Of a stretch of DNA of 64,000 nt, positions 37,378 to 64,000 are shown one piece after another. The stretch comes from an uncultured Actinomycetota bacterium (GTDB taxonomy: Bacteria; Actinomycetota; Actinomycetes; Streptosporangiales; Streptosporangiaceae). The notes beneath the pieces are model-generated. The model was given only the letters and a program-made list of their open reading frames with translations, ran no database searches and had not been told where the DNA came from. Positions within the stretch are counted from its first letter, which is position 1. The number at the start of each line of letters is the position of its first letter. The translations under genes and the position numbers were made by a program. The stretch spans positions 21,766 to 85,765 of the forward strand of contig CAVTUG010000001.1 of NCBI GenBank assembly GCA_963737865.1, given 5' to 3'.

Positions 37378-37381
37378 CCCC

Positions 37382-39281: not shown

Positions 39282-41109
39282 ATGAGCTTCGAGCCCATTC
39301 ATCACATGGTGGAGCGGACCGCCAGCCGATTTCCGGGCAGCGTGGCGATCGAGTCGCCGGAAGGCCAGCTCACGTATGCGCAACTCGAGGCCGGGGCGAA
39401 CCACCTGGCCCGGCAACTGCAGGCTGCGGGGGCCGGCCCGGGCTGCCTCGTGCCGATCGTCGCCGATGATCGCCGCGAGGTCGTCATCGCCGTCCTAGCC
39501 GCCCTGAAAGCCAGGGCGGTGTTCGCGCCGCTCGATCCGCACAGCCCCCGCGAACGGCTGGGGGGCATCCTGGACGGCTCGCACCGCGATGGGTGCTGCT
39601 CGGCGCGGGCAACCGGGCTCGCGACGCCGAGCTGGTGCAGCGGCACGCGCCGGCCGCGACGCAGGTCACGGTGGACCCGGCCGATCGCGGTAGTGGCCTG
39701 CCCGAGCCGACCCGGCCAGAGCCGGACGACGAGTGCTACGTGTTCTTCACCTCCGGCTCCACCGGCCGTCCCAAGGGCATCGTGGGCCGGCGAAGGCCGT
39801 GGACCACTACATCCGCTGGGAAACGGAGGCACTCGGCGTGGAACCCGGGTGGCGCTGCAGCCACCTCACCTCCCCGGCTTTCGACGCGATGCTCAGGGAC
39901 ATTTTCCTGCCGCTGTGCTCCGGAGGGACGATCTGCGTGCCGCCACCAGCCTCCGCCCTCGACGCGCACCAGCTCAGCAAGTGGATCGATGCCGAGAAGA
40001 TCAGCCTGGTGCACTGCGTCCCCGCCGTGTTCCGTGGCCTGGCGCGGGTGGCGGACTCGGCGCCGCAGGAATTCCGGGCGCTCCGCTGGATCGCTCTGGC
40101 GGGGGAGCAGCTCCCGCCCGATGACGTCCGCCGGTGGCTCGGCCGCTACGGGGAAAGGATCGGCCTGGTCAATCTCTACGGCCCGTCCGAGGCGACGATG
40201 ACGAAGACCTATCACTTTGTCACCCCCGCCGACGCCGGCCGGGACTCGGTCCCGATCGGGGTGCCCATACCGGACACCGAAGCGCTGCTCGTGGACAGCC
40301 GAGACCAGCTCTGCCGCGACGGCGAGATCGGCGAAATCTATCTGCGCACTCCGTACCTGACGCATGGCTACTACCGGCAGCCGGACGCGACGAGCCAGGT
40401 CTTCGTCCCGAACCCCGTCACCGGGGACCGCGTCGACATCGTCTACCGCACGGGGGACTTCGGCCGTCGGCTGGCCGACGGTGAGCTGGAGTTTCTCGGA
40501 CGCAAGGACCATCAGGTCAAGATCGGCGGAGTGCGGGTCGAACTGGAGGACGTGGAGCGCACGCTCCGCGAACTGCCAGCCGTGCGCGACGCCGCAGTGG
40601 CGCTCGACCAGTCTGGCGACGTCCCTTGCCTCTGCGCTTTCGTGGAGGCGGACGGCGAAGTTGACGAGGATCTCCTGCGGAGCAGGCTGCGCGCGCGGCT
40701 CCCGGTGGCTGCCATTCCAGCCTCGATCGTCGTCCTGGACCGGATCCCGCGCACCGTGAGCGGGAAGACCGACCGCCGGTCGCTGCCGCTCGGCCTGGCC
40801 AGGCGCGGTCGCGGGGACAGCGAGGGGACGAGGCCAGGCACGCCGACCGAGCGAGCTCTCGCCGGACTGCTTCACGAGCTGGCGCCCGCCGTGGCGGTGG
40901 ACGTCCGGGCGGATCTCCTCGACCTCGGCGCCAACTCGCTGCTGATCATGCAGCTCCTGCTCCGGCTCAACGATGACTTCGATCTCGAGGTCCCGCTTCA
41001 GACGTTCCTCGCCGCACCGACCCTGGCGGCGCTGGCGCGCTGGATCGACACCGAGGCGCGGGACGAGGACCATGCGCTCGACCGATTGCAGCGACATGCC
41101 ACGACCTGA
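39282..41109 (+). pseudogene. NRPS A-T didomain protein; frame broken near 39581 and near 39790
   Basis: It uses three frames. The first has TYAQLEAGANHLARQL and FAPLDP. The second has WVLLGAGNRA and CYVFFTSGSTGRPKGIVG. The third has AKAVDHYIRWE, NLYGPSEATM, YRTGDFGRR, GRKDHQVKIGGVRVELEDVE, VSGKTDR and the T motif LGANSLLIMQL. Confidence 0.85.
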
Positions 41110-42025
41110 GCGGACCCCCGGGGCCTACGTGTCCGCCATCGGATTCGCGGTCGGGGAGGCTGTCGCCCTGCAGGAGCTGAGCGATCCGGGGATCATGGCC
41201 GAGCTGGCCAGCCTCCACAAAGACGGGCTGCGCGAATGCCGGGTCGCGAGCTGCGGCCGGGCGTCGCTGGCCGCCGCCGCCGCGCGGCAGAGCGTTGGTG
41301 ACGAAACCCGGCCAAGGCCCAGCGCAGTGGTCTACTGCACGGACACCGTCAGCGACTCGCCGACCTTCGAGGCGCAGCGGCTGCTGGCGGCCATGTCCGG
41401 ACCGCCAGGTCACGTCGTCATGGTCGGCGGAAACGCCTGCGCGAACTTCGGATCGGGGCTGCAGCTCGCCATGGCCTGGCTCGCGGCAAGCCAGGCCGAA
41501 TCGGTGCTCCTGGTGACGTCCGACGAGGTGATCAAGGGGTCTCGCTACCTCGCAAGCGGCCGGACGGTGCTCAGCGACAGCGCCGCGTCGTGCCTGGTCT
41601 CGGCCAGTCCGGTCGGCCCTAGCTTCAGGGTGCTCGGGATGTCCTCCGGAGGCGGGCCCGCATCGGAGTCCGATCTTGCCGGAAATCAGGCGCTGCGGCA
41701 GACCGCGGCGGGAGTGGAGCAGACGGTCCGCGCCGCGCTCGCGGCTGCGGGCAGGCAGGCGTCGGATTGCCGGTACATCCTGACCGGGAATCTCGGCGGC
41801 ACGCTCCGAGGCTTCCTGGCCATGGCGGCCGGATTCAGGCCGGCCAAGGTCTATGCCCACGGTGGCGAGACGCTGGCACATTGCTTCGCCGCCGACATCC
41901 TGATCGCCCTGCGCGCCGTTGTAGCGGACGAGCTGGTGGCCCCGGGTGACCTGGTCATGCTGCTGCCCACTAGCCCAGTCTCGTGGTCGGCGATCGTAGT
42001 GGAATATGTGCCTGGGTCATCCTGA
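41096..42025 (+). CDS. KAS III (FabH)-like condensing enzyme
   Basis: It has the candidate active-site Cys in GGNACANFGSGLQLAMAW. The ~310-aa size and thiolase-like layout fit the family. ATG 41096 overlaps the end of the A-T gene. Confidence 0.6.
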   Translation: MPRPERTPGAYVSAIGFAVGEAVALQELSDPGIMAELASLHKDGLRECRVASCGRASLAAAAARQSVGDETRPRPSAVVYCTDTVSDSPTFEAQRLLAAMSGPPGHVVMVGGNACANFGSGLQLAMAWLAASQAESVLLVTSDEVIKGSRYLASGRTVLSDSAASCLVSASPVGPSFRVLGMSSGGGPASESDLAGNQALRQTAAGVEQTVRAALAAAGRQASDCRYILTGNLGGTLRGFLAMAAGFRPAKVYAHGGETLAHCFAADILIALRAVVADELVAPGDLVMLLPTSPVSWSAIVVEYVPGSS

Positions 42026-42058
42026 AAGTGCCGCGAATTCTTGATCCATCCGCCAACT

Positions 42059-42081: not shown

Positions 42082-42175
42082 GTGGGTGCGCAGGTAGGGC
42101 GAACCCTTCCATAGGTGAACAGTTCGGGGTTAAAGTCGCGTTGACCTTGAAGAGCAGCGATCTTGGGGGTTCATA

Positions 42176-42836
42176 GTGCCTCGGCCGATCGAGCAGCGAA
42201 CAGCACCGAGATTGCATCAGCAAAATAGGCCGAGCGGGAGTTCTGCGCAGCTTGCCCGACAGCCTATCCCGAATGACAAGATCATGGTGACTGAGGTGGG
42301 TCTCCAGATCTCGCAGGCGGTCGATTTCGATACCTGGCAGCAGGCGGGTCGCAAAATCGGGCGAATTTCCGAATCCTCTACGTGGTGCCTGGGTGACTGG
42401 CTGATCTATGGCCAGGACCAGTACTCAGATAGATACCGGCTGGCAATCGACTCCGCTCAGCTGGATTACCAGACACTGCGCAACTATGCCTGGGTAGCCC
42501 GCCGATTCGAGCTGAGCCGCCGCCGGAGCCGGCGGCTTCCAGCACCACGCGGAGGTCGCCGCACTGCCGCCCGATGAGCAGGATCGCTGGCTGGATCTCG
42601 CGGAGGGCAAGGGCTGGTCACGGAATGAATTACGCAAAAACATTCGGACCAATGCCCGCGGCAGGGAACTTCCGGATTCCTCGATCACCCTCCTTCCTCG
42701 GCTGTACGTGCCCGCCGAGCACCTCGTTCGCTGGCGCGAGGCGGCGAAGCGCCTCGACCAGGACTTCCAGCTCTGGATGGTGACTGTCCTTAACGAGAGC
42801 GCCGCGCGCGATCTTCGGCGCCGCGAGTGCGAATGA
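42176..42836 (+). pseudogene. LmbU-family pathway regulator; frame broken near 42540; contains a TTA codon
   Basis: STWCLGDWLIYGQDQYSDRYRLAIDSAQLDYQTLRNYAWVARRFELSRRR is in the first frame. My translation of the shifted frame gives GFQHHAEVAALPPDEQDRWLDLAEGKGWSRNELRKNIR through to the stop at 42834-42836. TTA codon at 42630-42632. Confidence 0.65.
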
Positions 42837-43766
42837 GACCCGCAAGGGATCTCGATCAGGCGCTTGTCGGTTACGGCCCGCAGACCCGCAGCCTCGCGGA
42901 GAGCGTGGTGCGCGAATGGCCCGACCACGAGGACTACCTCGTGCGGCGCTTCGACGGACGCGAAGGCGATGCCTTTATCGCGGAGACCCTGGCAGAGAAG
43001 ATCCTGCGCATTCTTGGCCCGCGGCGCACCGAGGCGATCGAGAATTACCGCTGGACCTGCGACCTTATGCTGGCTCACGAGTATGCGTTCGCGGGCACCG
43101 GGCGATATATGAACTCCTCATTTGCCGAGATCCGGGCCGCGGTCTACGACGACGCTAAGTTTATGTCGCGATACACCGACGGGCTGCTTATCTCGCAGCT
43201 GCTCTGGGCCAATCACAGCGCATCGATCGCTAGCTACCGCGCTGATTTCCTGACCCGGCTGCATCCGGACTCCGAGCTGCTCGAAGTCGGTCCTGGGCAC
43301 GGTCTTCTGCTCGCGCTCGCCGCTGCGGAGCTTGCCGTTCCGGTGACCGGCTGGGACATCAGCGAGACGAGCCTGGCGGCCACCCGGCATGCTCTGGAGG
43401 CGATGGGCGCTGGAAGCGTCGTCCTGCGCCGCGCGGATATCAGGCAGGCGCCGACGCAGGACACCTTCGACGCGGTCGTCGCGAGCGAGTCTCCTCGAGC
43501 ACCTGGAGGACCCCGCCGCCGCCCTGCTGCGGATCGGGGAGATAACCCGGCCAGGCGGGCTGCTTTTCCTCAACATTCCGGTCAACAGTCCTGCCCCTGA
43601 CCACATATTCCTGTGGACCACGCCCGAAGAGGTTCTAGAATACGTTACGTCCACCGGACTTGAAGTGCTTGACGCGCAGGTATTTCCGCTGACTGGCAAG
43701 ACGGAAGCTCAGGCTCGCAAAGCTGGAATGACCATCTCGTGTGTTGTTATCTGCCAGCGCCCGTAA
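42833..43766 (+). pseudogene. Class I SAM-dependent methyltransferase; frame broken near 43488
   Basis: It has the motif I LLEVGPGHGLL. After the shift it reads LLEHLEDPAAALLRIGEITRPGGLLFLNIP. ATGA overlap with the regulator gene at 42833-42836. Confidence 0.8.
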
Positions 43767-43779: not shown

Positions 43780-44061
43780 ATGTCAGACGCCGATCGGCTG
43801 CGTGATCAGCAGGTCATCCGGATGATCGTAAGCCAGCTCGCTCCGGTCAATATCGATGGCCTCACGGCGGAAGCCCGCCTTATCGAGGATCTCGGTTACC
43901 ATTCGCTAGCGCTTCTCGAACTCGCATTCGCGCTCGAGGACGAGTTCGGCCTCCCGCCGCTGGATGAGGAGACGGCGCGGAAGATTCGCACTGTCCGGGA
44001 CGTGGAGGACTTGGTTGCACAACGGCTGTCGACAGCAGAACGCAGCGCTGACGCAAGCTGA
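43780..44061 (+). CDS. Free-standing acyl/peptidyl carrier protein
   Basis: About 93 aa. It has the phosphopantetheine-site context IEDLGYHSLALLELAFALEDEFG. Confidence 0.8.
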   Translation: MSDADRLRDQQVIRMIVSQLAPVNIDGLTAEARLIEDLGYHSLALLELAFALEDEFGLPPLDEETARKIRTVRDVEDLVAQRLSTAERSADAS

Positions 44062-45347
44062 GGGGGCGCGCGAGGCCGGCCTTTATCGGGCAGCGCCTGA
44101 TCTGGCTTCTGGAGCGACGCGGCGGAGTAACCGGCGTCCTGAACGTCTTCAGCGCCTTCCGCCTCCGGGGGCCACTGAGCGAAGAGGCCCTGCTTGACGC
44201 GCTGCGGGAATTGCCGGTGCGGCACGAGAGCTTACGCACTACTTTTTCCGGGAATGGTCCCAGGCTCTCGCAGCTAGTACATCCTTCGCATCCGGTGCCA
44301 GCTCACGTCGTGAAGTTACTGGACATCCGGGCCGCCGAGCTCACCGATGCCGTGCGAGCGGAGGCGCGCCTGCACTTCGACCTGGGGACGCAGTGGCCGT
44401 GCCGGATGCGGCTGTTCCGGGTCGGCCCTGATGACCATGTGCTCACCATCGTGATCCACCACATCGTGACCGATGGCTGGTCCATGGCCGTCCTCATGGA
44501 CGAGCTGCGGACGCTGTATGCCGTGCGGCTCGGGGAGCGGGTCGAGCCGCCGGAACCGTGCGCGTGGCACCAGGCCGACTTCGCCCTGTGGCAGCGTCAG
44601 TGCATGGAAGACGGTTCTTTCGACGGGAAGACGGCCTACTGGCGGGAAGCTCTGGGGACGGCCCAGCCGATCAGCCTGCCGTCGGCACTCCAGGTGCCGT
44701 CGCCAGACCCCGAGCACGAACCGGGCGTCCTGCAGTACGACGTCCCCGCGAAGGCCGAAACGGTATTCCGGGAAGCCGCACTGCGGCATCGCAGTAGTTT
44801 CTTCGCGGTGCTCGTCGCGGCTTTCAGCGGGTACCTGGCCGCCAGCGGCAGCCAGGGGAAGATCCTCGTGCCGGTGTTCTTCGCTAACCGGACCCGCATG
44901 CAGGTACGCCGGACCGTCGGCTACTTCTCGAACTTGATGCTGCTTCCTATCGATCTCACGGATCAGCCATCATTCGCGGAGCTGATTGGCCGCTCAATGC
45001 GTACAATCTTGAAAGCCATTGCCAACCAAGATGTTCCGTACCATGTCGTGCCGCCGCCAGAACATGGAATCGAGCGGCGGAAGCATCCGGAGCTGGTGCT
45101 GGACTACTTCAAGATTGCCGGAAACGATGCGCTCGAATTATCTGGGCTCGACGTAAGGTCGTACGGTCTCGATGTCGCTACCGGAACGCGATTCGCTGTC
45201 GAGTTCCATTTTGTCGAGCGGAGCGATGGTCTCAAGATAGCGTGTGTCTACTCTCCCGATTACACCTGCGCTGGTGCCATTACCCGATTTCTTGACGGAT
45301 TTGCTGACTTCGCGTCGCAGCTTGGTGCCGGTAGTCTTAGCGGGTGA
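44052..45347 (+). CDS. Stand-alone NRPS condensation domain (start unresolved; possibly fused to the preceding carrier protein)
   Basis: It has the N-terminal C1-like RPAFIGQRLIWLLERR and RHESLRTTF, and the HHxxxDG motif VIHHIVTDGWS. The frame opens at 44052 with no ATG/GTG before the TTG at 44211. Confidence 0.8.
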   Translation, partial: RKLRGRARPAFIGQRLIWLLERRGGVTGVLNVFSAFRLRGPLSEEALLDALRELPVRHESLRTTFSGNGPRLSQLVHPSHPVPAHVVKLLDIRAAELTDAVRAEARLHFDLGTQWPCRMRLFRVGPDDHVLTIVIHHIVTDGWSMAVLMDELRTLYAVRLGERVEPPEPCAWHQADFALWQRQCMEDGSFDGKTAYWREALGTAQPISLPSALQVPSPDPEHEPGVLQYDVPAKAETVFREAALRHRSSFFAVLVAAFSGYLAASGSQGKILVPVFFANRTRMQVRRTVGYFSNLMLLPIDLTDQPSFAELIGRSMRTILKAIANQDVPYHVVPPPEHGIERRKHPELVLDYFKIAGNDALELSGLDVRSYGLDVATGTRFAVEFHFVERSDGLKIACVYSPDYTCAGAITRFLDGFADFASQLGAGSLSG

Positions 45348-46435
45348 GCAGCGCTCCGATCCCCGAGGTCGCTGAGCTGGATGCCACGTGGCTGACGGCC
45401 ATGCTGGCCGTCTCGGGGGCCGCGCCCTCGGGTGCACGCATTGTCGGGGTACGGCCGGAGAAGCTGTCCGCCGGCAGGCTGGCCAGCACCGTCCGCTTCC
45501 TGCTCACCTGGGCCGACGACGACAACCGCGGCCCCGGCTCGCTCGTGGGCAAGTTCCCCGCCGAGGGTGCTCGAAGCCGGGCGACCGGGCACGCCACCGA
45601 CGCCTACGCGATCGAGCTGGCCTTCTACCGCCAGCTCGCGCCGACGCTGCGGGTGACGGTGCCCCGCTGCCACTTCGCGGGCAGCGACCAGGCGACCGGC
45701 CGGTTCGCCTTGATCCTGGATGACGTGAGCCCCGCCAGGAAGGTCGATCAGGTCGCGGGAGCGTGCGAGGACGAGGCGGCGGCTGCGCTCGTCGAGCTGG
45801 CCAGGCTGCATGTCCAGTTCTGGGACTGCGACCAGTCGGGACCCCTGCGGTGGGTGCCGGTTCGGGCCGCACCAGAGAACGCCCGGCGGCTGGCCGCCGC
45901 CTACCGGCTCCTGCACCGGAGGTTCCTGGATCGGTTCGGGGGACGTCTGTCCGACCGCGCGGTTCGGGTGATCGAGCTCTTCGACACCGTGATCCGGCGA
46001 TGGCCGAGCCGGGACAGCCTGCCCTGCACTTTGCTGCACGGCGACTATCGCGTGGACAACTTGCTGTTCGGAGGCGACGGCGTGGTACCTGGTGTCACCG
46101 TGCTCGACTGGCAGAACTTAGGTCTCGGCACTGGCGCGACCGACGCCGCGTACCTGATCGGCGGCAGCCTGCCGATCGAGACCCGCAGGCGCCGGGAGGC
46201 GGAACTGGTGCAGGTCTATGTGGACGCCCTGGCCGCCCAGGGCGTCGCGGTCGGCGAACGTGAGTTTCGCGCCGCCTACCGTGCTAACGCTCTCGCCGGC
46301 CTGCATATGACGGTCGTGAGTGCGATGCTGGTGGACGACGGCCCAGGCAATGATGAGCTGTTCGTGACGATGGCCGAGCGTCATGCCGCCCACGCGGACG
46401 ACGTGAATGCACTGGACGAGTTTGCTGAACTCTAG
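45344..46435 (+). CDS. Phosphotransferase-family kinase (APH/EcKL-like)
   Basis: It has the catalytic-loop-like LLHGDYRVDNLLFG and VLDWQNLGLGTGATDAAYLIG. GTGA overlap with the upstream C-domain gene. Confidence 0.7.
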   Translation: MSSAPIPEVAELDATWLTAMLAVSGAAPSGARIVGVRPEKLSAGRLASTVRFLLTWADDDNRGPGSLVGKFPAEGARSRATGHATDAYAIELAFYRQLAPTLRVTVPRCHFAGSDQATGRFALILDDVSPARKVDQVAGACEDEAAAALVELARLHVQFWDCDQSGPLRWVPVRAAPENARRLAAAYRLLHRRFLDRFGGRLSDRAVRVIELFDTVIRRWPSRDSLPCTLLHGDYRVDNLLFGGDGVVPGVTVLDWQNLGLGTGATDAAYLIGGSLPIETRRRREAELVQVYVDALAAQGVAVGEREFRAAYRANALAGLHMTVVSAMLVDDGPGNDELFVTMAERHAAHADDVNALDEFAEL

Positions 46436-46450: not shown

Positions 46451-47656
46451 TTGGCTCGCGAAATGTTTAGCTCGTTGCAGCATCGGCAATTCAGGCTATT
46501 TTTCTGGTCCCAGCTTGCCTCCGCCTCAGGAGACTGGGTCCAGATAGCCACCTTCAATATCGCGGTGCTTCGCCTGACCGGCGGCGGGAATCAGCTCGCG
46601 ATCGCCAACCTTGCCGCGTTCGTGCCAGCGATCTTGCTCACGCCCGTGGCGGGTGCCTGGGCGGACACCCGAGACAAGATCCGGCTGCTGGCCTTTGTCA
46701 ATGCCGGGCTGCTGGCGGCGGCCGCATTACTTGGCGTGCTGGCACAGACCAACTCGCTGTCGTTGCCGGTCATTTATGTCGCTGCGGCGGTGACCGGCTC
46801 GCTGGCCGCCTTCGATATCACTGTGCGCCAGGCGCTGGTCGCCGATCTCGTGCCGCTGAGCGATCTCGGCAATGGCATCGGGCTGAGCGTGACGTCCATG
46901 ACCGTCGCCCGGGCTGTAGGCCCGTTCAGCGCGGCCGTCCTCGTCCCGCTTCTCGGAATTTCCGGCTGCTTCTACGTCAATGCCGCCAGTTATATATTTC
47001 TGCTGGCCTGCCTGCCGCGACTGCGCGCTCCCCGTAACGAGGTTGCCAAGAAATTCGTACCGCGGTCAAGCCCGCAGGCCGTTGCGCGGACTCTTTGGGA
47101 AAATCGGGCTTTGCGAATTCCGATGCTTCAGATCGCAGCGCTGAGCGGATTCGGGATCACGTCTATTGTGCTGCTGCCGCTGTTTGTAGTCCGGACTTTG
47201 CATTCACCAGACTGGATCTACGCGCTGCTGGCTGGACTCGTGGGCACCGGATCAGTAGTCGGCGGCCTGACCATGACAGCTCGGCAGGTTATCGGGCCTC
47301 GTGCCGTTGCCACCTGTGCTATCGGCCTGTCGGCGATGCTCGCCATCGTCGGCCTGTCCACGTCCGCAGCAATCGCTGGGCTGCCGCTCTTCCTTTCTGG
47401 CGTTTTTGCCGCTTGCGCTATCGCGGCGGCGCTAGCGACGATGCAGATAGCCGCAGCACCTGAGATGCGCGGGCGAGTGATTGCCTCGTATACGATGGTA
47501 TTTACGATCTCGACGGGCCTGGTGGCACCGGCAACTGGGTTTATTGCCGAGGCCACGTCGCCGCGCGTAGGGTATTTCATCTGTGCTTCTGTGGTCGCGG
47601 CATCAGCGGTGCTCGTATTGTCCGGGCGGGAGCGATTGAAAGCGGCAATTCAGTGA
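46451..47656 (+). CDS. MFS transporter (EntS-like exporter type)
   Basis: 401 aa with about 12 hydrophobic segments. The N-terminal FRLFFWSQLASASGDW is typical of this MFS subgroup. Confidence 0.8.
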   Translation: MAREMFSSLQHRQFRLFFWSQLASASGDWVQIATFNIAVLRLTGGGNQLAIANLAAFVPAILLTPVAGAWADTRDKIRLLAFVNAGLLAAAALLGVLAQTNSLSLPVIYVAAAVTGSLAAFDITVRQALVADLVPLSDLGNGIGLSVTSMTVARAVGPFSAAVLVPLLGISGCFYVNAASYIFLLACLPRLRAPRNEVAKKFVPRSSPQAVARTLWENRALRIPMLQIAALSGFGITSIVLLPLFVVRTLHSPDWIYALLAGLVGTGSVVGGLTMTARQVIGPRAVATCAIGLSAMLAIVGLSTSAAIAGLPLFLSGVFAACAIAAALATMQIAAAPEMRGRVIASYTMVFTISTGLVAPATGFIAEATSPRVGYFICASVVAASAVLVLSGRERLKAAIQ

Positions 47657-54184: not shown

Positions 54185-55917
54185 GGCACGCTCTTCGCGG
54201 CCCGTGCCGAGGCGATGGCGTCCGCTTCCCGCGCGCCCCCCACCTGGCTGTCGATTACTGCGAGCAGCCGCACGAGCGTCCGTGCCTCGAACAGCGCGTC
54301 GACTGGCACGGGGACCTTGAACAGCATGCGCAGCTTGCCTATCACCCGAACCGCGGCGAGCGAATCCCCGCCCGCGCGGAAGAAGTCTTCCCTGGCGGTG
54401 GCAGGTGGCCGTCCCAGGGCCTCGGTCCACCACTCCCGCAGGACCTGGGCCGCCGGGCGGCAGAAAAGATCAGCCTCAGCCGCCGGGCCGGCCTGTTCCA
54501 GGGCCGGGCCGGCGCCATTGACGGGCGCCGCATCCGATTCCCGGGCGGACTCTGCTGTGTCTGCTGGCTCGGTGCCCGTGCCGCTGGCATGCCACTGCGC
54601 CGCGCCCAGCCGGCCTACTTCACGGCCGAGCCCGTCGGCGAGCCCGGCAAGCACCGCCTCGAAGCGGCCAAGCAGCGTGGCGATCATCTCGGCGGTGAAC
54701 AAGGCTGGCAGGTACAGCAACTGGAGCCGGGACCTCGGGTGCCGGGGAAGGACGGTCAGAGTCAGCGGGAATCCGGCGTCCTCGATGACCTCGCGGATCC
54801 TGAGCCGCAGCCCATCGCCAAGATCGAACTCGGGGTTCTCGTCCGGATAGTTCTCGAACACGACGATGCTGTCGAACAGCGGGGCCGTTGCGGGCAGTCC
54901 CGCGAATCTCGCCAGGTCCGCCAGGCCCGCGTGCTGGTGCGGGAGCGTGTCGAGATAGTCGCGCTGAACCTCCCGCAAGAAGGCGCCGACCTCCGCCGCG
55001 TCGTCGACACCGATCCGGCGCGGGATGGTGTTGATGAACACCCCGACCATGTCAGCGATGCCGGGAAGCTCGGCTGGCCGCCCCGACACCGCCGCGCCGA
55101 AGACCACGTCGTCCGAACCCGCGTGCCGGGCGAGCAGGACTGACCAGGCCGCGTAGAACACGGTACTGAGAGTGACGCGGGCCTGCCGCGCCGCAGCCGC
55201 CAGGGCCGTGCTCAGCTCGGAGCTGAGGTCGAGGTACGCCCGTCCCGCCGACACCTCGCCCGCCCGCTCTGCCTCTGGTCCCGGAGTCCGCAGCCGCAGC
55301 GGAGCAGGCCGGATCCCCGCCAGCCGCTGCCGCCAGAAGGTCTCGAGCGCCGGGGTCTGATTCTGGCCGAGCCAGCTCACGTAGTCCCGGAACGGCCGGG
55401 GCTCTGGCAGTGCGGGCGCCGAGCCTTCAGCGCAGGCCCGGTAGTGGGCGGCGACTTCGGCGATCGTGATCGGCATGGACCAGCCGTCCATGATCAGGTG
55501 ATGCAAGGTCCAGACGACGACACAGCCCCGATCGCTGGCAAGGATCGTGTGCCGCATCAGAGGCGCGGCTGCCAGCGCGATCCCGCGATCGCGGTCCTCG
55601 GTGAGGAACTGCTGCACCGCAGCCTCCACCTGATCCTGCTCTAGGTCCTTCAGGTCACGGCACTCGACCTGGACGGCGCACTCGTCCATCACGATCTGCA
55701 GCGGCTCGTCGACGCCTTCCCAGACAAAGGCGGTGCGAAGGGCGGGATGCCGCCGGACCACGGCCGTCCAGGCGGCCGCCAGGCGCTCCGGGTCGGGCGT
55801 CCGGTCCGCCTCGAAGACGAACTGCTCGATGTAGGGGCCGGGCCGGTCCTCCTTGACGACATGGAACAAGATTCCGGCCTGCATCGGGGTGAGCGGATAG
55901 ATATCCTGGATGTTCAA
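54181..55917 (-). CDS. NRPS C-T didomain protein
   Basis: It has DIYPLTPMQAGILFH, the HHxxxDG motif TLHHLIMDGWS and the C-terminal T motif FFRAGGDSLAAVRV. The TTG start overlaps the upstream stop. Confidence 0.85.
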   Translation of the reverse strand: MNIQDIYPLTPMQAGILFHVVKEDRPGPYIEQFVFEADRTPDPERLAAAWTAVVRRHPALRTAFVWEGVDEPLQIVMDECAVQVECRDLKDLEQDQVEAAVQQFLTEDRDRGIALAAAPLMRHTILASDRGCVVVWTLHHLIMDGWSMPITIAEVAAHYRACAEGSAPALPEPRPFRDYVSWLGQNQTPALETFWRQRLAGIRPAPLRLRTPGPEAERAGEVSAGRAYLDLSSELSTALAAAARQARVTLSTVFYAAWSVLLARHAGSDDVVFGAAVSGRPAELPGIADMVGVFINTIPRRIGVDDAAEVGAFLREVQRDYLDTLPHQHAGLADLARFAGLPATAPLFDSIVVFENYPDENPEFDLGDGLRLRIREVIEDAGFPLTLTVLPRHPRSRLQLLYLPALFTAEMIATLLGRFEAVLAGLADGLGREVGRLGAAQWHASGTGTEPADTAESARESDAAPVNGAGPALEQAGPAAEADLFCRPAAQVLREWWTEALGRPPATAREDFFRAGGDSLAAVRVIGKLRMLFKVPVPVDALFEARTLVRLLAVIDSQVGGAREADAIASARAAKSVP

Positions 55918-57482
55918 GTTCGCTCCGTCTCAACCGCGGCAGCCACGGCGTCGCGGTCGGCCTTGCCGCTGGGCGTCTTCGGGAGGCTGCCGAGCACGGT
56001 CACCGACAACGGCACCGAGACCTCGGGGAGCACCTCGGCGAGTTGGCGCCGGACGGCCTCTTCGTCGATTCGGTGCAGCGGGTCCTTGAGCGTGACCCCG
56101 GCGCGGAGCGCGCGCGGCATCCCGTTCCCGCCCGTGATGACGGCGACGGCCGCCGAGATCTCGCCTAGGGCGAGCAACTGGGCCTCGACCTCGGTCAGGC
56201 TGATCCGGACGCCTCGGAGCTTCACGTCGTCGTCGATCCGGGCCAGCATCTGCACCCGGCCCCCTTCGAACCGCACGAGGTCGCCGGTGCGGAACGCCCG
56301 GGTATTTCCGTGCCCGGTCTCCTCGATCTGGATATACCGGCGCGCGTTGAGTTCGGGCTGTCCCAGATAGCCAAGCGCCAGCGGCGTGCCGGCGACGAGA
56401 AGCTCACCCTCTGCGTCGCTGCCTTCCTCCGCATCGATAAGGAGCTCGCACCCTGGCAGCGGGATTCCGATGGGCGGCAGCGTCGGCCAGTCGCCGACGG
56501 AATCGGGCAGGACGTGGTAGGTGACCATCGCCGATTCGCTCTGCCCGTAGTGGTTCACCAGCCGGCATCCGGCCGCGCGCTTGAAGAAGGACGTGATCTC
56601 GTCGGTGCGGACGAGCTGCTCGCCGGCGACGTTGATTTCCCTGAGCGCCAGCGATTCCACCGGGCCGTCAAATCCCCCGGCCACGGCGAGCATCTGCAGC
56701 GCCACGTACGGGAGGAAGAGCCGCTCGATTTCGTTGCCGACGAGCCAGTCGAGCAACCCGAGCGAGTCGCGCCGCAGGGATTCCGGTATGACGACCAGCG
56801 TGCCGCCGGCGCCGAGCGTTCCGAAGATCTCCTGGAACGACACGTCGAAGTTGAGCGGCGCGAATTGCGCTGTGCGGAGGTCGGGCGCGGCCGACGCCGC
56901 AGCCTGCCATTCGACGACGTTGTCGAGACAGCTGTGCGGTAGTTCCACGCCCTTGGGCCAGCCGGTGGAACCCGAGGTGTAAATAACGTAGACCGCTAGA
57001 TCAGGGTCGTGATCAGTCAGCCAGGACTGGTCATCGCCGTCAGGATCGAAGTCCGGGGCGGGGTCCGGACGCACCAGCGGGATGCGGATCAGGTCATCGC
57101 CCAGGCCGCGATCGGCGCCGTCGCAGAGCACGACCTCGGTCGCGCTGTCCCTGAGCATGTGCTCAAGCCGGGCCCTCGGGTACTCCAGGTCGAGTGGGAC
57201 GTAGGTCCGGCCGGACAGCGTGACTGCCAGCATCGCGGCCACGGCGCCGGCGCCGCGCGGGCAGGCGATGCCGACGCGGCCCCCTCGCTGACTGCCGCAG
57301 CGATCCAGGTCGCCCGCGATGTGCGCCGCCCACCGCATCAGCTCCCCGTAGGTCAGGGTGAGATCGCCGTCCACCAGTGCGACAGCAGCAGCGTTTCGGC
57401 TGGCGACGTCGGCCAGGGTCGGGACGAGACACGGCGGGTCAGCCGGTCCGCCCCATAGGGATCGGGCGTAGTCGATGGTCAT
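55914..57482 (-). CDS. Stand-alone NRPS adenylation domain
   Basis: It has VYVIYTSGSTGWPKGV, NHYGQSESAM, FRTGDLVRF, ARIDDDVKLRGVRISLTEVE and KTPSGKADR. 522 aa with no carrier domain. Confidence 0.85.
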   Translation of the reverse strand: MTIDYARSLWGGPADPPCLVPTLADVASRNAAAVALVDGDLTLTYGELMRWAAHIAGDLDRCGSQRGGRVGIACPRGAGAVAAMLAVTLSGRTYVPLDLEYPRARLEHMLRDSATEVVLCDGADRGLGDDLIRIPLVRPDPAPDFDPDGDDQSWLTDHDPDLAVYVIYTSGSTGWPKGVELPHSCLDNVVEWQAAASAAPDLRTAQFAPLNFDVSFQEIFGTLGAGGTLVVIPESLRRDSLGLLDWLVGNEIERLFLPYVALQMLAVAGGFDGPVESLALREINVAGEQLVRTDEITSFFKRAAGCRLVNHYGQSESAMVTYHVLPDSVGDWPTLPPIGIPLPGCELLIDAEEGSDAEGELLVAGTPLALGYLGQPELNARRYIQIEETGHGNTRAFRTGDLVRFEGGRVQMLARIDDDVKLRGVRISLTEVEAQLLALGEISAAVAVITGGNGMPRALRAGVTLKDPLHRIDEEAVRRQLAEVLPEVSVPLSVTVLGSLPKTPSGKADRDAVAAAVETERT

Positions 57483-57526: not shown

Positions 57527-59032
57527 TCAGGCACCGAGGGTCAGCTGCTGCAGGCGTCCGGGCTCAGCCTCGGCTTCGAGGAAGCTGCGGCAGATCCGGG
57601 CAGCGACCTCCTCGACGGACGCGGCCCGCTCGCGGCCGGCGGGAGTGTTCACCTGGTCGGTCAGCACCAGGCCAGGACGCACCACGAAGCAGCTGATCCC
57701 CGGATACGTGGTCGCGGTCCAGTGCGCGAGACCCTCGACTGCCGCCTTCGCCGCCACGTAGTGCGGCCATTCCGCAGGAGGAGCGTCCAGAGCCGCCGAA
57801 GACACCGTGAGGCAGCGGCCGTGCGAGCGTTCTAAGGCGGCCGCCAGCCCGGACAGCGGCACGCCGACGAGATCCAGAGCCCTGGCTGTGTAGCTGCCGA
57901 TCCGCAGCGAGCCCTCCGGGGTGAAGACGGCGGTGCCGATCGGCGGCGCCGCGCTCAGGATGAGATAGTCCAGCCGCCCGCCGTGGTCGGCTAGTCGCCT
58001 GAGCACCGCTGCCGGCCACTGCGCTGTCGATGCGTCTCCGATGACCGAGAGCAGCTCACCCCGCCCGGTCAGCTGCTGGCTCACCGGAGCGAGGGCGCCG
58101 GCCTCCCGGTGTCCGACCAGAACCCGGCAGCCCTGCCCGGCCAGGGCGAGCGCAAGGCCCGCTCCAAGCCCGCGCGAACCGCCGACCACGACGGCGCTGC
58201 GACCGGCGAGCCGCTGCGAAGGGGCCAGCACCCGGTCGATCGACGCCAGCGAGGGAATCGGCGCCGGCGCGCAGACCATGGCGTCGAGCTCGACCTCGGC
58301 GACCACTGACTCGCCGGCGAGCAACTGCCCCTGGACCGTCACCAGACCGAACCGATCATCGACGTCGACGACCCGCGCCGTGTAGCGGAGTGCGTCCCTG
58401 CGGGTCACCGGATACACCTGCAGCCGGACTCGGCACAGCAGCCCGTGCCGGCCAGGAAGGTCCATGCCGGCCACATAGCTGGCCCATGCCATCGCGGTGA
58501 TCCAGCCCGTCCCCAGCCCGCGCACGGCCCTCGGCCATCGTCGGGCCAGTTCCGCGCCGGCTGCTTCGCTCGGCGCGTATCCGCCGGACGCCTCGGCATC
58601 GCCCGTCAGCCCTGCCAGGGCTCGATCGGCCCGCCCGGCTGGGCTATCGCCCGGCCCGTCCAGCGTTCTCGGCACGGCAGCGCCGCCGGCGAGCGAGATG
58701 CGCAGGCACCGGTAAGGGCCATCGGAGACGGTAAGCCGGGCGGTGGCGGTGGACGACACGTCATACGACGTGTCAGGGAACAGCGGGCGGGGAAACTGCA
58801 CTTCCAGTTCACGCAGTTCCGCGACCTCGAGCGGGATTTCGTCGAGCGCGGCGATGCAGCCGAGCATGCCATGAGCGATCGGCTCGCCGAATGGAGTGCG
58901 GCGCGCGAACGACTCAGACAGATGCATCGGGTTGGCGTCTCCGCTGAACCGGCGGAACGCTTCAACATCGTCTTTTGTCAAGCGCACTGAAGACTCCCGC
59001 CAATATCTCGACCCGGCGCGCTGAATTAGCAT
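57527..59032 (-). CDS. Fusion of MaoC-like (hot-dog) dehydratase domain(s) with a short-chain dehydrogenase/reductase
   Basis: The N-terminal [29 protein letters not shown] marks the MaoC domain. A second hot-dog-like segment follows. The C-terminal part has [18 protein letters not shown] and [11 protein letters not shown] (YxxxK). The start may be an internal GTG. Confidence 0.75.
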
Positions 59033-59135
59033 CGATCAAGGCTTGGAAAGTGTCAACGGCGGCGGCTTGAACGTCCTTGTCTTTCCGGCCAAGCTGGAGT
59101 GTCAAGAACAATATGCTGGGAAACGGTGGTCTTAT

Positions 59136-62100
59136 ATGGCGCGTGAACTCCGTCGAGCTCAGGATATTCTTAGCGCCGTCAGCGGAGGCCGACCGCGAGA
59201 TACCGACTCGCCTGCCGATGGCAGTGCTCACTCAGATGGCACGGCTCACTCAGATGGCACGGTCCGGTCAATCGTCATCGAGGTTTTCAAAGATATCCTG
59301 GGAATCGATGACGTCGACCCTGATGCGCCTTTCGGCCGTCTAGGCGGGGAATCACTGCTCGCGGTCCGGATCCTGTCGCGCTGCCGCCGCGCGCTCGGCG
59401 TGGAGCTTCCGCTGCGCTCACTGGGGTCGGCGGTGACATTGAGCCAGTTCGTCGTCGCCGTTCGGCAAGCGCAGGACACGCGGTGCACCGCGCGCGCCGA
59501 AGAACCCGCAGCCGACAGTGCGACCTTCCCGCTGCCGGCTGGAACGGCCTCGCTGGTGAGCCTGCACGCGCTGGACCCCGATTCACCCTTGTACAGCGTT
59601 GCCATGAAACTCGTCCTGACCGGTCCGCTCGATCCGAATCGGCTCCGCGCGGCGGTGACCGCCCTGGTGCGGCGGCACGAGGCGCTCGGGCTGACCTTCC
59701 TGCTCGTGGAGGGGCATATCACCGCGCGGATCGCCGCAGACCCGGTCGTCGACTACGAGGTGATCGACGCTTCCGGGCCGGACGGGACAGCAGCACGCCT
59801 GATCCGGGGCATCACCCTGCGGCCACTCGACCTCGAGCGGTCGCCGCTGCGCGTCCGCCTGGTCGCCGAGTCAGCGCAGCGCCATCACCTGATCCTGGTG
59901 GTGCATCACGCGGTCTGCGACGGACTGTCCGTGCGGATTCTCCAGCGCGACCTGCTGACCCTGTACCGCGACGGGAGCGATGCCGCCCTGCCCCGGCTCG
60001 AAGCCGGGGTGGCTGAACTCGCGCGCCGCGAGGCCTGGCTGACTCCCGAGCGGCAGGCCGAGCTGGCCGGCCGATGGCGCGGGAGGCTTGCCGGCGCGCC
60101 GGACGTCCTGCGGCTGCCGATGGAGGGCGGCCGCCCCGCCCGCCCGTCGCTGCGGGGGCGGCGCGCGGAGCTGCGCGTGCCAGCGGATCTGCACGGCCGG
60201 GTCCAGGACCTGGCGGCGTCCCTCGGAGTCTCGGTCTTCAGCGTCCTGCTCGGCGCGCTGGCCTCCATGCTCCGCCGCTACGGCGGGCAGCCGGACATCG
60301 TCATCGGCATCCCGGTCGCGGGGCGCGCCGATCCTGACAGCCAGGATGTGGTGGCCAATCTCGCCCGGATGATCCCGATCCGGCTGACCGTAGCCGACCG
60401 GACCGCCGCCGCTGATCTGGTCATCGGCGCCCAGGAGGCGATCTTGTCCGCGCGGGAGGACGCCGACCTGGCCTTCGCCGCCATCGTCGAGGCGGTGCGC
60501 CCGCGCCGCGCGGCGAGCCACCATCCCTTGTTCCAGGTCGCGCTCACGCTGCTGACCGGGTCGGACGAGCGCGTGGAGGTGCCGGGCCTGGACATCACGC
60601 GTCATGATCTCGACACCGCGACCTCCAAGTTCGATATGACCTGGTTGCTGCAGGAGGCGGACGGCGCCTTGGAAGGCCACGTCGAGTACGCCTCGGACCT
60701 GTTCCCACTGGTGCTTGTCGAGCAGATGGCGGGAAACCTGACCGCGATCCTGGACGCGATGGCGCGCCACTCCGCCACGACGGTCGAGCGGCTCGCCCTG
60801 TTCAGCGGACCGGAGCGGCGCCGGCTTCTCGACGAGCTGCACGGCGGAACTGACGGCGAGTGGCTCGCCATCGGTGACCTGGTGCAGCGGCATGCGGCCG
60901 AACGCCCCGACCATCCTGCCCTGTGGCACGAGGGGCGCGAGACGTCCTACGGCGAGCTCGACGCGGCCGCGAACCGCCTGGCCGCGCGGCTGGCCGCAGC
61001 CCGGATCGGCCCCGAGGACGTGGTGGGGGTGTGCGTCGAACGTTCTCCGGCGCAGCTCATCTCCGTCCTTGCGGTGCTGAAAGCGGGTGCCGGGTACCTG
61101 CCGCTGGATCCGGCCGGTCCGGCGGAGCGGCTGACCGGCATCGTGGCCGCCTCAGGGGCGGTCTGCGTCCTCGCCACGGCCGCGAGCCGGGCCATGCTGC
61201 CGACGCTCCGGCCGGGGCTCACCGTGCTCGACATCGACGACCGCGCAGACACCGGCACCGCCGCAGCTCCGGCGAGCCGGCCGGCCGCGAGCCAGCTGGC
61301 CTGCGTCAGCTATGCGTGCGACGCGACGGGGCAGGGCAAGGGCATCCAGCTCACCCACGCGGGCCTGGCGAACCTGGTGAAGAGCACGGGCCTGGCCTTC
61401 GGGCTGGGCCAGGACACCCGGGTACTCCAACTCGGCGCTCTGGACTGCGACGCCGCGGTCTGGGCGACGTTCACGGCTCTGAGCTGGGGTGCCACCTTGT
61501 GCCTGGCGCCCGCGAACGTCGCCGGCGACGATCGCTGCGTCGAGGAGGCGATCCGGGCTTGCGGCGCCACGCTGGTCTATCTTCCGCCGGCCCTGCTCTC
61601 CGTCGTCGATCCGGGACGAGTGCCCAGCGTGCGCCTGGTGGTCACGGGCGGCGACCGGATCTCCGCCGGGCTGCGTGACCGCTGGCTCGCACGGTGCCGG
61701 CTCGTCACGGCGTACGGCGCCACCGAAGGCACCATCTTCGACGCCTGGCAGGAGCGGTCAAGCGACGAGCCGGGGAATGACGATCTCCCGATCGGCAGGC
61801 CGATCACGAACGTGCAGCTCTACGTCCTGGACGGGGCGCTGGAGCCGGTGCCACCTGGCACGGTGGGCGAGGTCTACGTAGCCGGTGTCGCCGCCGCTCG
61901 CGGGTACCTGGGCCGGCCCGGCCTGACCGCTGGCCGGTTCGTCCCCGATCCGCACGCCACCCGAGCCGGGATGCGGATGTACCGGACCGGCGATCTGGTG
62001 CGCCGCGAGCTGTCAGGTCAGCTGCGGTGGGCCGGGCGCGTCGACCGTCAGGTGAAGATCGGCGGGTACCGCGTCGAACCGGGCGAGATCGAGGCTGCCC

Positions 62101-62432
62101 TGCTGGAACTGCCTGGCGTGCGGGAAGTCCTGGTGACCGCCGAAGCCGGATCGTCGGGAGCCGCGCGGCTGATGGCCTACGTCGCCGCGACCTCATCGGA
62201 GCAGCCGGGCCTGGAACGGCACTGGCGCGACCGGATGACAGCTCGCCTGCCCGGCCACCTGGTGCCGGCGCGGATCTTCCCGGTGCCGGCGTTCCCGCTG
62301 ACCGCCGACGGGGAAGTCGACCTCGCCATGCTGAGCGTCCTGGCGAGGATGCGGCGAGCTGAGCGGCGAGCCTTGCTGGCGCGGGTGGAATCGGCGGCCG
62401 GGACGACCATGACGGCCCGGGAGCAGGCGTGA
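59136..62432 (+). CDS. NRPS T-C-A protein whose A domain has degenerate A3 and A10 core motifs
   Basis: T domain: [15 protein letters not shown] domain: [12 protein letters not shown] domain: [31 protein letters not shown] and [14 protein letters not shown]. However, A3 reads [16 protein letters not shown] and A10 reads LTADGEVD (Glu in place of Lys). No downstream T domain. The ORF is open from 59043. Confidence 0.8.
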
Positions 62433-64000
62433 CGGCGGAGAGGAGCGCCCCTGCTGAGGTCGTCCTGGCGGGGACGTTCGCGCTCGACCTGATCGCCCAG
62501 ACCGCATCCTGGTGGCTGGCGAGGACGCAGCCGCAGGTTCGGCTGACCGAGGCGCCCTACGGGCAGCTGCTCGAGTCGCTGTACGACCCGGCCGGGCCGC
62601 TGCGGGTCAGCCGAGGCGTCAACGTGCTGGTCATCCGCCCTGCTGACTGGCTACGAGATCCCGACGATGCCAGCTACGCGGTGTCGGACCGGTCGGTTCA
62701 GGCGGCCGACGAAGCCGTGCGAGCCTTGCGCGGGGTGACGGCGAGCAGCCAGGCGACGTGGCTGGTGGCCGTGCCTCCGCCGGCACCGTCGCTGAGCGCG
62801 GTGCCGGGGGCCGGCGCCTGGGTCGCCGAGCAGACGGGCCGGCTGCTGGACGCGGTCCGCAGCACCCCGGCGATGTACGAGGTCGACGTGCGGACCGTGG
62901 CCGAGCTGTACGAGGTCAGCTCGATCCACGACGACTACGCGGACCGGCTCGCCCACCTGCCCTACACCGATGCCTACCTGGCGGCGCTCGGCACCTGGCT
63001 GGCGCGGGCGGTGAGCGCCGCGCTGTCGCGACCCCGCAAGCTCGTCGTGCTGGACTGCGACAACACGCTCTGGTCGGGCATCTGCGGTGAGCAGGGCCCG
63101 GAGAACGTCATCGTCTCTGAGCCTTATCTGCGGCTGCAGCGATTCATGCGCGAGCAGCGTGCCAAGGGCAAGCTGCTCGCCTTATGCAGTCGAAACGACG
63201 AGGCCGACGTGCTGGCGGTCTTTGCGAGGGCAGACATGGAGCTGCCCCTGGAGGAGATCGCCGCCCGCCGGATCGGCTGGGGCTCGAAGGCGGCCGCCAT
63301 CGGTGAGCTCGCGGCCGAGCTCGGCTTCGCCCTGGACGCGGTGGTCTTCGTGGACGACGACCCGGTGGAGTGCGCCCTGGTCGCCGACGAGCTTGCGGAC
63401 GTCGCCGTGTTCGGCGTCCCCGAGGAACCCGGGGACATTCCGGCGGCGCTCGCTCACGAGTGGGCGTTCGACCAGCTCGTGGTGACCGACGACGACCGGT
63501 TCCGAGCCGACCGCTACGTCCAGGAGAGCCGCCGGCGCGAGGCCAGGGATACAGCCGCGGACTACGCCGCGTTCCTGAAGCGGTGCCGAACCGAGATCGA
63601 CCTGGTGCCACTGGACGAAGCTGCGGTCGAACGAGCCGCCCAGCTCACGGTGCGGACCTCGCAGTTCAACCTGACGTCAGAAGCGTTCACGCCGGCGGGC
63701 CTGCGTGCCTTCCTCGCCGAGGGCGATGGCTGGACGGTGCGGGTCAGGGACCGGTTCGGCGACTACGGCACCGTCGGGGTGGTGCTGACCGGACCCGCCA
63801 GCGACGACGTGCTTGGTGTCCGCCTGCTGCTCCTGAGCTGCCGGGTGCTGAATCGCGGGGTGGATGCCGAGATCGTGCGGTTCCTCAGGCGACGGGCGGC
63901 GGAGCTTGACTGCTCGTCGCTGCGGCTGCCCTACCGCAAGACCGCGCGCAACCTGCCAGCTCGGCTATTCCTCGAACAGCTGGCCGGCGTCGCTATCCCC
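62429..64000 (+). CDS. FkbH-like HAD-IIIC family protein (glyceryl-carrier-protein loading type); 3' end beyond the window
   Basis: This ORF is not in the ORF track because it has no stop in the window. My translation from GTG 62429 (GTGA overlap) is open for 524 codons. It contains [35 protein letters not shown] and [13 protein letters not shown]. Confidence 0.75.

Follow-up and report, generated by a model that had tools for sequence, protein, structure and literature searches.

A candidate lactyl-starter cassette of the lankacidin type in an orphan, dissociated peptide synthetase cluster of an uncultured actinomycete

In the lankacidin and FR901464 pathways, bifunctional dehydratase-ketoreductase (DH-KR) proteins turn glyceryl-S-ACP (ACP, acyl carrier protein) into lactyl-S-ACP, according to PMC4765723, and the lankacidin starter is described in PMC6162330 as pyruvoyl- or lactoyl-ACP derived from 1,3-bisphosphoglycerate. 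Three other settings are known for FkbH-type enzymes or for the units they have been linked with: i) tetronate clusters (RK-682, tetronomycin, agglomerin and tetromadurin) are defined by FkbH-like, ACP and FabH-like genes, and the operon needs a FabH-like enzyme, an ACP, homologs of Agg4 and Agg5 and a beta-ketoacyl donor (PMC4979870, PMC7489565); ii) the methoxymalonyl pathway needs two dehydrogenases (PMC7489565); and iii) in the vioprolide and cystomanamide lines of nonribosomal peptide synthetases (NRPS), FkbH stands in place of an adenylation (A) domain and loads a C3 hydroxy acid on a thiolation (T) domain, with a FAAL (fatty acyl-AMP ligase) and an ester-forming condensation (C) domain in the same line (PMC8949500). 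Here we compare these systems with a 64,000-nucleotide stretch of DNA from an uncultured Streptosporangiaceae bacterium (assembly GCA_963737865.1, contig CAVTUG010000001.1, positions 21,766 to 85,765; the whole stretch is hereafter "the window"). Its span from 41096 to 64000 carries an FkbH gene, a FabH-like gene (hereafter KAS III-like, after beta-ketoacyl-ACP synthase III), a free ACP, a FAAL and a fusion of a MaoC dehydratase with a short-chain dehydrogenase/reductase (MaoC-SDR), which a first-pass annotation had taken for a single glycerate/tetronate cassette.

We think it reasonably probable that this span is part of an orphan, dissociated actinomycete NRPS cluster that holds three separate functional units and not one cassette. 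The first unit (57.5-64.07 kb) would be a lactyl-starter cassette composed of the T domain of a T-C-A protein, FkbH and MaoC-SDR; the second, made up of the FAAL, the free ACP and a stand-alone C domain, probably supplies a lipid; and the third would comprise an asparagine synthase homolog, an A-T didomain and the KAS III-like protein. All five genes singled out in the first-pass annotation are present at, or very close to, the positions assigned to them, and they are indeed interleaved with genes for a stand-alone C domain, a C-T didomain, an A domain and the T-C-A protein (Table 1). Their union in one cassette is not supported, for they belong to different conserved neighbourhoods and the free ACP is unrelated to the carriers that accompany FkbH.

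The FkbH protein scored 257.6 bits against the FkbH domain model TIGR01686 (cut-off 146.65) and 43.9 bits against the HAD-IIIC model TIGR01681 (cut-off 35.75). Both catalytic motifs are present, namely the HAD DxDxT phosphatase motif (LDCDNTLW) and the Cys motif (LSCRV) in the C-terminal acyltransferase half, and the same DCDNT and Cys motifs are found in the lankacidin and FR901464 homologs; the role of the cysteine in the C-terminal half is reportedly known from work on OzmB. The gene is cut by the window edge, as had been pointed out, but only 23 codons are missing. A short Logan contig of this strain (L086), which shares 2083 bases with the window at 99.95% identity and reaches 860 bases past its end, supplied the rest of the C-terminus and the stop codon, and the next gene on it is another adenylation-domain gene. 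The complete protein (~546 aa) consists of an N-terminal domain of ~200 aa, the HAD-IIIC domain and the C-terminal acyltransferase half, with no fused carrier. The earlier proposal that FkbH introduces a glycerate-derived unit is supported: through this intact enzyme, 1,3-bisphosphoglycerate most likely contributes a C3 unit to the peptide assembly line.

The neighbours of FkbH were compared over 80 loci with relatives of the window FkbH, taken from species-representative genomes of GTDB, whose 10-kb flanks were searched with all window proteins. The closest relatives among the species representatives were those of Mangrovihabitans endophyticus (57% identity) and four Amycolatopsis genomes (48-50%), and two further close relatives came from a protein database (68% in locus L087 and 49% in L088). 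Wherever the upstream flank of a close relative (at least 44% identity) could be read (L001-L004, L007, L087 and L088/L091), a MaoC-SDR fusion lies at most 4 kb from FkbH; in distant phyla it is adjacent to FkbH in two loci (L006 and L015) and within 10 kb in two others (L021 and L024). The gene order is A, MaoC-SDR, T-C and FkbH in L087, and MaoC-SDR, a major facilitator superfamily (MFS) gene, a stand-alone carrier of 84 aa and FkbH in L088. Immediately upstream of FkbH the close relatives encode a carrier. In Amycolatopsis and Streptomyces it is a protein of its own, and in L001, L087 and the window it forms part of a T-C(-A) fusion; in L089 the upstream gene is cut and presumably encodes T-C-A, giving the same T-C(-A)-then-FkbH order as in L001 and L087. 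Beyond FkbH, L089 encodes A, T, PhyH, hydrolase and T-C proteins. The small carrier directly upstream of FkbH in the Amycolatopsis loci bears the motif GGDSLRAVRVLSR. The T domain of the window T-C-A protein (~59274-59454) is 43-50% identical to such stand-alone carriers (L002, L007 and L088), whereas the free ACP of the window shows no similarity at all to the FkbH-partner carriers. Shared gene order and carrier homology thus pair FkbH with the T domain and mark carrier, FkbH and MaoC-SDR as the conserved unit. In the window, the carrier of FkbH would then be the N-terminal T domain fused to the C-A protein, and the MaoC-SDR fusion would act as its dehydratase-ketoreductase partner. In L001 a methyltransferase gene also stands beside FkbH; its ortholog in the window is frameshifted.

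The same trio occurs on plasmid pSGRIFU1 of Streptomyces griseofuscus, where FkbH, the carrier and MaoC-SDR are 49%, 50% and 41% identical to their window counterparts. Both the lankacidin and the lankamycin cluster are located on this plasmid, whose similarity to pSLA2-L of S. rochei is high (PMC8443760), which, together with the flanking LkcE-like oxidase, trans-acyltransferase (trans-AT), polyketide synthase (PKS), dehydratase and C-A-T-KS genes (KS, ketosynthase), supports the identification of the locus as the lankacidin cluster. The genes found there encode an FAD-dependent oxidoreductase, a trans-acyltransferase, PKS, a discrete PKS dehydratase, a C-A-T-KS hybrid, MaoC-SDR, an MFS protein, the carrier, FkbH and a pyrroloquinoline quinone (PQQ)-binding protein, next to sugar and P450 genes. 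The MaoC-SDR query also matched plasmid p1 of Burkholderia sp. FERM BP-3421, which we take to be the FR901464 producer: the match lies in the first ~460 residues encoded by a 14.8-kb PKS gene, an FkbH-like segment follows directly in the same frame, and both segments share 33% identity with the corresponding window proteins. The MaoC-SDR identities of 41% (lankacidin) and 33% (FR901464) cover ~90% of the protein. In an alignment of the MaoC-SDR proteins of the window, lankacidin, FR901464, L001 and L087, the residues D32, N34 and H37, the motif GGSRGLG (GxxRGLG), S411/S412 and Y425/K429 are invariant in all five; they comprise the hydratase-2 Asp/His (D32 and H37), the SDR glycine motif, the Ser and the YxxxK pair. 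The glyceryl-to-lactyl conversion is said to go back to He et al. 2014, the source that PMC4765723 cites for it.

The resemblance to lankacidin (S. rochei pSLA2-L and S. griseofuscus pSGRIFU1) extends over an FkbH of ~540 aa with an N-terminal extension, a MaoC-SDR of ~500 aa, a small carrier similar to a peptidyl carrier protein directly upstream of FkbH, and conserved catalytic residues. In lankacidin, however, the carrier is stand-alone and LkcA, an NRPS-PKS hybrid, receives the starter product at its C domain, whereas in the window carrier and C-A form a single protein, the downstream line appears purely NRPS (no KS in 64 kb), and the cluster has in addition a methyltransferase, a FAAL and a KAS III-like gene. 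The FR901464 (spliceostatin) loading module shares homologous MaoC-SDR-like and FkbH-like segments and a reported lactyl-S-ACP starter, but all its parts are joined within one trans-AT PKS, at the N-terminus, while those of the window are separate genes that would feed an NRPS. As a side observation, the window encodes a PQQ_2 beta-propeller protein at 28570-29643, and the PQQ-binding beta-propeller gene of the lankacidin cluster comes right after FkbH (L091, 19269-20900).

By analogy with these two pathways, a route for the first unit can be proposed. FkbH would dephosphorylate 1,3-bisphosphoglycerate and place the glyceryl group on the N-terminal T domain of the T-C-A protein, as expected from the biochemistry of its family. 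The MaoC half would remove the C3 hydroxyl of glyceryl-S-T to give enol-pyruvoyl and then pyruvoyl-S-T, loss of the 3-hydroxyl being the normal reaction of a 3-hydroxyacyl-thioester dehydratase, and the SDR half would reduce the 2-keto group to give lactyl-S-T, both steps being proposed by homology with the lankacidin and FR901464 proteins. Joining of the acyl group to the first amino acid would then fall to the fused C domain (HHAVCDG). Since the trio matches systems with a reported glyceryl-to-lactyl conversion, the product is probably a nonribosomal peptide capped with an N-lactyl (or pyruvoyl) group. This would be an ordinary building-block cassette of a known type in an uncharacterised peptide cluster, and not a tetronate system.

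Several points weigh against the lactyl-starter proposal: i) identities to characterised proteins are 33-49%, so that substrate or product could differ; ii) the SDR might go unused, leaving pyruvoyl, or the cassette might stop at glyceryl; iii) the T domain has GGES and not the usual GGDS; iv) the methyltransferase that accompanies FkbH in L001 and is present in the window is unexplained by a simple lactyl scheme; v) the T-C-A protein has no C-terminal T domain that would indicate the order of assembly; vi) the KAS III-like subfamily of the third unit keeps Cys, Asn and His in a rearranged form, from which a condensing activity is conceivable; and vii) if the frameshifts of the cluster (see below) are real, the pathway may be inactive.

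The second unit bears on whether the glycerate might be kept. In a vioprolide-type arrangement the glycerate would stay on the T domain, the FAAL and ACP would deliver a fatty acid, and a C domain would esterify the glycerate hydroxyl, with MaoC-SDR acting on the fatty chain or being irrelevant. A FAAL, a free ACP, a stand-alone C domain, FkbH and a T domain are all present in the window, and the vioprolide and cystomanamide lines combine FkbH with a FAAL and an ester-forming C domain. MaoC-SDR, however, tracks FkbH and not the FAAL, for it adjoins FkbH even where no FAAL lies within 10 kb (L001-4, L007, L087 and L088); in its catalytic residues it agrees with the proteins that process glycerate in the lankacidin and FR901464 pathways; and the FAAL and ACP genes, 9-18 kb away from FkbH, belong to other transcription units. 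Moreover, no dehydratase-reductase partner is described for vioprolide and cystomanamide, where glycerate is kept and esterified and FkbH is a domain of the NRPS, while FkbH of the window is a free protein. We therefore consider retention of an esterified glycerate unlikely and favour its conversion to lactyl or pyruvoyl.

In two orthologous loci (L083 and L084) the ACP gene is immediately followed by the stand-alone C gene, with the FAAL gene a few genes further on; the free ACP travels with the stand-alone C domain and not with FkbH. The top NCBIfam match of the FAAL is NF006624 (fatty acyl-AMP ligase), at 293 bits and below the full-length cut-off of 600, and its top PDB matches are 7r7e, 3pbk and 3kxw; on these matches the FAAL assignment is sound. 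Loading of a lipid by FAAL, ACP and C domain is the usual reading of such a set, for which a vioprolide-like acyl ester provides a precedent, and a lipidated peptide with a glycerate-derived unit, as first suggested, is possible. Two features of these proteins were noted in passing. The FAAL has ~130 residues between aligned subdomains as against ~35 in 7r7e, an unusually long insertion of ~95 extra aa at the FAAL-specific insert site. In the stand-alone C gene no in-frame ATG, GTG or TTG occurs before 44211 (44062-44211), though the alignment with its ortholog starts at 44067, which suggests an unusual start codon or a small sequence error.

The KAS III-like protein of the third unit was the centre of the tetronate proposal. 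Its Pfam matches to thiolase/FabH-fold families do not exceed the cut-offs (26 and 21 bits, one below or at each), and the fold, which is clear, was assigned from an AlphaFold model (pLDDT 78.9, pTM 0.83), for which Foldseek returned FabH, ChlB3 and DpsC at probability 1.0, with the top TM-scores for ChlB3 (0.76) and DpsC (0.75). In FabH the Cys serves transacylation, while His and Asn are needed for the Claisen condensation (PMC5724707). Alignment with Aquifex FabH, both as a single sequence and through the family profile, puts Cys115 on the FabH Cys, Gly231 on His244 and His262 on Asn274, so that only the Cys of the Cys-His-Asn triad is kept, an outcome that the first-pass annotation had itself named as refuting its reading; this comparison was made with FabH and not with characterised tetronate-forming enzymes. 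Among PDB structures NatS (7vyu) is the best match by sequence, and it shares the Gly-His found there; a literature search for the code 7VYU gave no match.

A word-indexed search that returned 10 proteins had suggested that this family is rare, an idea that was dropped when an exhaustive profile search gave several hundred clusters: 180 representatives (of 50%-identity clusters) at E <= 1e-30 and 742 at E <= 1e-10. Residues were counted in the window protein and 150 representatives (n=151). Asp161 and Asp267 are present in every one (151/151), His262 in 149/151, Cys115 in 146/151 and Asn232 in 135/151, while most have Asn, Gly or Pro at the position equivalent to His244. No characterised member was identified in the subfamily (window protein and P0137-P0284). 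A strongly conserved signature not seen in FabH was also noted (N117, D143, R150, S160-D161, C166, N232, H262, D267 and W297). The closest relatives (L082, L083 and L084) lie beside an asparagine synthase homolog and an A-T didomain, often with a gene of the Asp/Glu-racemase family; distant members, which come from a Streptomyces contig and from plasmids of Rhodococcus and Nostoc (three other clusters), are near adenylation and carrier genes, acyl-CoA dehydrogenases and pyridoxal phosphate-dependent decarboxylases. Searched with the family profile, the 80 FkbH-relative loci had neither a KAS III-like member nor any FabH within 10 kb.

These results bear on the proposal that FkbH, the free ACP and the KAS III-like protein form a dispersed tetronate set or supply hydroxymalonyl or methoxymalonyl extender units, the FAAL and MaoC-SDR making the beta-ketoacyl partner in the tetronate version. 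The window does hold, in one cluster, the FkbH-like, ACP and FabH-fold genes by which tetronate clusters are defined, and MaoC plus SDR could in principle make a 3-ketoacyl thioester from an enoyl thioester. Against this, the equivalents of His244 and Asn274 are lacking, the free ACP is unlike the partners of FkbH and is not adjacent to it as a dedicated carrier, and the FkbH and KAS III-like genes lie 20 kb apart, the latter having its closest relatives next to asparagine synthase and A-T genes. No sizeable open reading frame (ORF) of the window encodes a ketosynthase, a 2-oxoacid_dh acyltransferase (Agg4-type), an acyl-CoA dehydrogenase or a 3-hydroxyacyl-CoA dehydrogenase; an Agg5 homolog, a PKS or other beta-ketoacyl source, and the FkbI/FkbK-type dehydrogenases of extender-unit supply are likewise missing from the window, the methyltransferase being the only component of such a supply that was found. 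Both versions are thus highly improbable. The sole related locus with a 2-oxoacid_dh gene (L082, Streptomyces GCA_044459385.1) was considered as a tetronate-like locus and rejected, as its "FkbH-like" protein has just the C-terminal half of the FkbH domain and scores 82 bits, below the cut-off. At 1-2731 this locus encodes the 2-oxoacid_dh acyltransferase, then the 566-aa half-FkbH protein without the HAD phosphatase part, then a methyltransferase homologous to that of the window, an arrangement that may load a small acyl unit by another route.

For the KAS III-like protein itself, loss of the triad, the gene neighbours and analogy with ChlB3 and CloN2 suggest, as the least secure of our assignments, a carrier-linked acyl-transfer enzyme that serves the A-T didomain; most likely it would pass the acyl group bound to A-T on to a further carrier or nucleophile, which may be the free ACP two genes downstream. 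Like the acyltransferases ChlB3, NatS, DpsC and CerJ it has a thiolase fold and keeps the nucleophilic Cys, and by alignment offset its His at the FabH Asn274 position corresponds to His295 of CerJ. Fold and residues fit this group, but a conserved Asn232 stands next to the FabH His244 position, so that the chemistry may differ, and the window protein is only 16-22% identical to any solved structure, is shorter (~305 aa) and has a signature of its own (N117, D161, N232 and D267). The gene order A-T, KAS III-like, ACP resembles the logic of CloN4/N5, CloN2 and CloN1, where CloN2 presumably has a KAS III-like fold. CloN2 is described as transferring an acyl group from carrier to carrier (PMC11218499). 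In clusters of actinomycetes and cyanobacteria, members of the subfamily are found repeatedly next to genes for adenylation and carrier domains, and we suggest tentatively, as a possibility with the odds against it, that it carries out new carrier-linked chemistry in NRPS pathways, either handing the acid of an A-T didomain to a free ACP for a stand-alone C domain or forming C-C or C-O bonds without decarboxylation.

At least eight frame breaks were found in window genes that are single, intact ORFs in orthologous loci (carbamoyltransferase, serine hydroxymethyltransferase (SHMT)-like, C-A-T, C-T, A-T with two breaks, a 184-aa gene and the methyltransferase; at 4362-6087, 10648-12200, 32293-35716, 35713-37442, 39282-41109, 42284-42830 and 42827-43766). 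If these frameshifts were real, the region could be the non-functional remnant of a decayed cluster whose parts no longer cooperate. In the independent same-strain contig L086, however, a homopolymer run near 62.7 kb departs from that of the window by a single G, the window having the intact copy, and indel errors in the assembly data, not pseudogenes, are therefore the simplest explanation. The genes are otherwise without internal stops and highly identical to their orthologs, and those for FkbH, MaoC-SDR, T-C-A, the FAAL and the KAS III-like protein are all intact, which makes decay quite unlikely. The dispersal of components stressed in the first-pass annotation thus needs qualification: the interleaving is real, but part of the apparent scatter of small domain genes stems from frameshifts, in the methyltransferase and 184-aa genes within the span and in the C-A-T, C-T and A-T genes just upstream.

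Gene calls (Table 1) were made from Pfam and NCBIfam matches on long ORFs, given the high G+C content of the window (62-73%). The Stachelhaus-type codes of the A domains were read against a GrsA fragment and are approximate, indicating rough residue classes only.

Table 1. Predicted genes from the asparagine synthase homolog to the end of the 64-kb window
Feature	Coordinates	Strand	Basis and remarks
Asparagine synthase homolog, glutamine-hydrolysing	37382-39247	+	TIGR01536, 464 bits; begins MCG; adjoins A-T and KAS III-like genes, order conserved
A-T didomain	39282-41109	+	Code DARHAALMT (unassigned); two frameshifts; always near KAS III-like gene
KAS III-like protein	41096-42025	+	Weak Pfam matches; fold from model; signature C115, N232, H262, D267; Gly at FabH His244 position
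Conserved ~184-aa protein, no recognised domain	42284-42830	+	Frameshifted; also after KAS III-like gene in L083/L084
S-adenosylmethionine (SAM)-dependent methyltransferase	42827-43766	+	Frameshift near 43487; orthologs adjoin FkbH in L001 and half-FkbH protein in L082
Free ACP, fatty acid synthase type	43780-44061	+	PP-binding, 31 bits; motif LGYHSLALLE
Stand-alone C domain	44067-45347	+	Pfam; HHIVTDG; directly 3' of free ACP; aligned with L083 C protein from 44067
APH/EcKL-family kinase	45344-46435	+	Pfam; possible self-resistance or tailoring
MFS exporter	46451-47656	+	Pfam; 74% ortholog in L083
Cytochrome P450	47666-48970	+	Pfam
NovG-type helix-turn-helix (HTH) regulator	50445-51275	+	Weak HTH matches; 77% L083 ortholog carries NovG_helical
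FAAL	51202-53184	-	NCBIfam and PDB; 78-81% ortholog in L083/L084
DUF7064/DUF7065 protein (Rv3169 family)	53234-54433	-	Pfam, NCBIfam; real start probably downstream of 54181
NRPS C-T didomain	54181-55917	-	Pfam; HHLIMDG; GGDSL; 48% ortholog in L001
Stand-alone A domain	55914-57482	-	Pfam; code DVQFAAHM, Pro/piperazate-like; 61% ortholog in L001
MaoC (hydratase-2 type dehydratase)-SDR fusion	57527-59032	-	Pfam
NRPS protein T-C-A	59043-62432	+	Pfam; C motif HHAVCDG; A code DAWYVGAI (hydrophobic residue)
FkbH-type glyceryl transferase/phosphatase, stand-alone	62429-64000 (window end)	+	TIGR01686; 49% to lankacidin-cluster FkbH

Related clusters carry a pair of genes for a Lys/Orn N-monooxygenase and an FMN_bind_2 (PaiB-like) protein (L083, 11843-13869; L084, 5291-7317; L001, 19124-21092), which we take to be the KtzI/KtzT piperazate pair. 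The window has no ortholog of this pair at 45% identity or above, and the methyltransferase takes that position. A literature search for FkbH together with piperazic acid gave no match.

Other parts of the window were noted as follows. A second biosynthetic group (2896-16164) encodes a radical SAM-SPASM protein, a carbamoyltransferase, a fusion of GT2 and GFO/IDH/MocA domains, an ATP-grasp protein, a DegT-type aminotransferase, the SHMT-like enzyme, a stand-alone A domain, a CmlA-type diiron beta-hydroxylase and an alpha/beta hydrolase. A capuramycin/A-102395-type cluster had come to mind from the carbamoyltransferase and APH genes and that for the SHMT-like enzyme, but was rejected as the genes common to capuramycin-type clusters, namely those for iron/2-oxoglutarate (Fe/2OG) dioxygenases, CO-dehydrogenase-like genes and a CapW-type transacylase, are absent from the window. 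Between the two biosynthetic groups, on the minus strand (19001-24323), lies a series of nucleoside-related genes, for a dNK/AAA-like kinase, a nucleoside 2-deoxyribosyltransferase-like protein, a PfkB kinase, an HhH-GPD protein, a protein like Asp/Glu racemase or arylmalonate decarboxylase, and a radical SAM protein. The segment 16100-19000, where G+C reaches 72.6% (in 16-18 kb), has no convincing full-length genes; it holds only fragments, namely part of a Ser/Thr protein kinase (132 aa, 17687-18085) and others that are lactonase-like or MazG-like.

None of these findings overturns current understanding. For annotation, three units that look like one cassette are now separated, and a rule follows: where FkbH has a MaoC-SDR fusion and a small carrier beside it, a lactyl or pyruvoyl starter is indicated, and not a tetronate or methoxymalonate unit. 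The most interesting loose end, and a reasonable target for enzymology, is the KAS III-like subfamily. For discovery, the N-lactyl or pyruvoyl cap, perhaps with a lipid, is a predicted mass-spectrometric handle for an orphan actinomycete peptide, relatives of whose cluster in other strains carry piperazate genes (L001 and L083).

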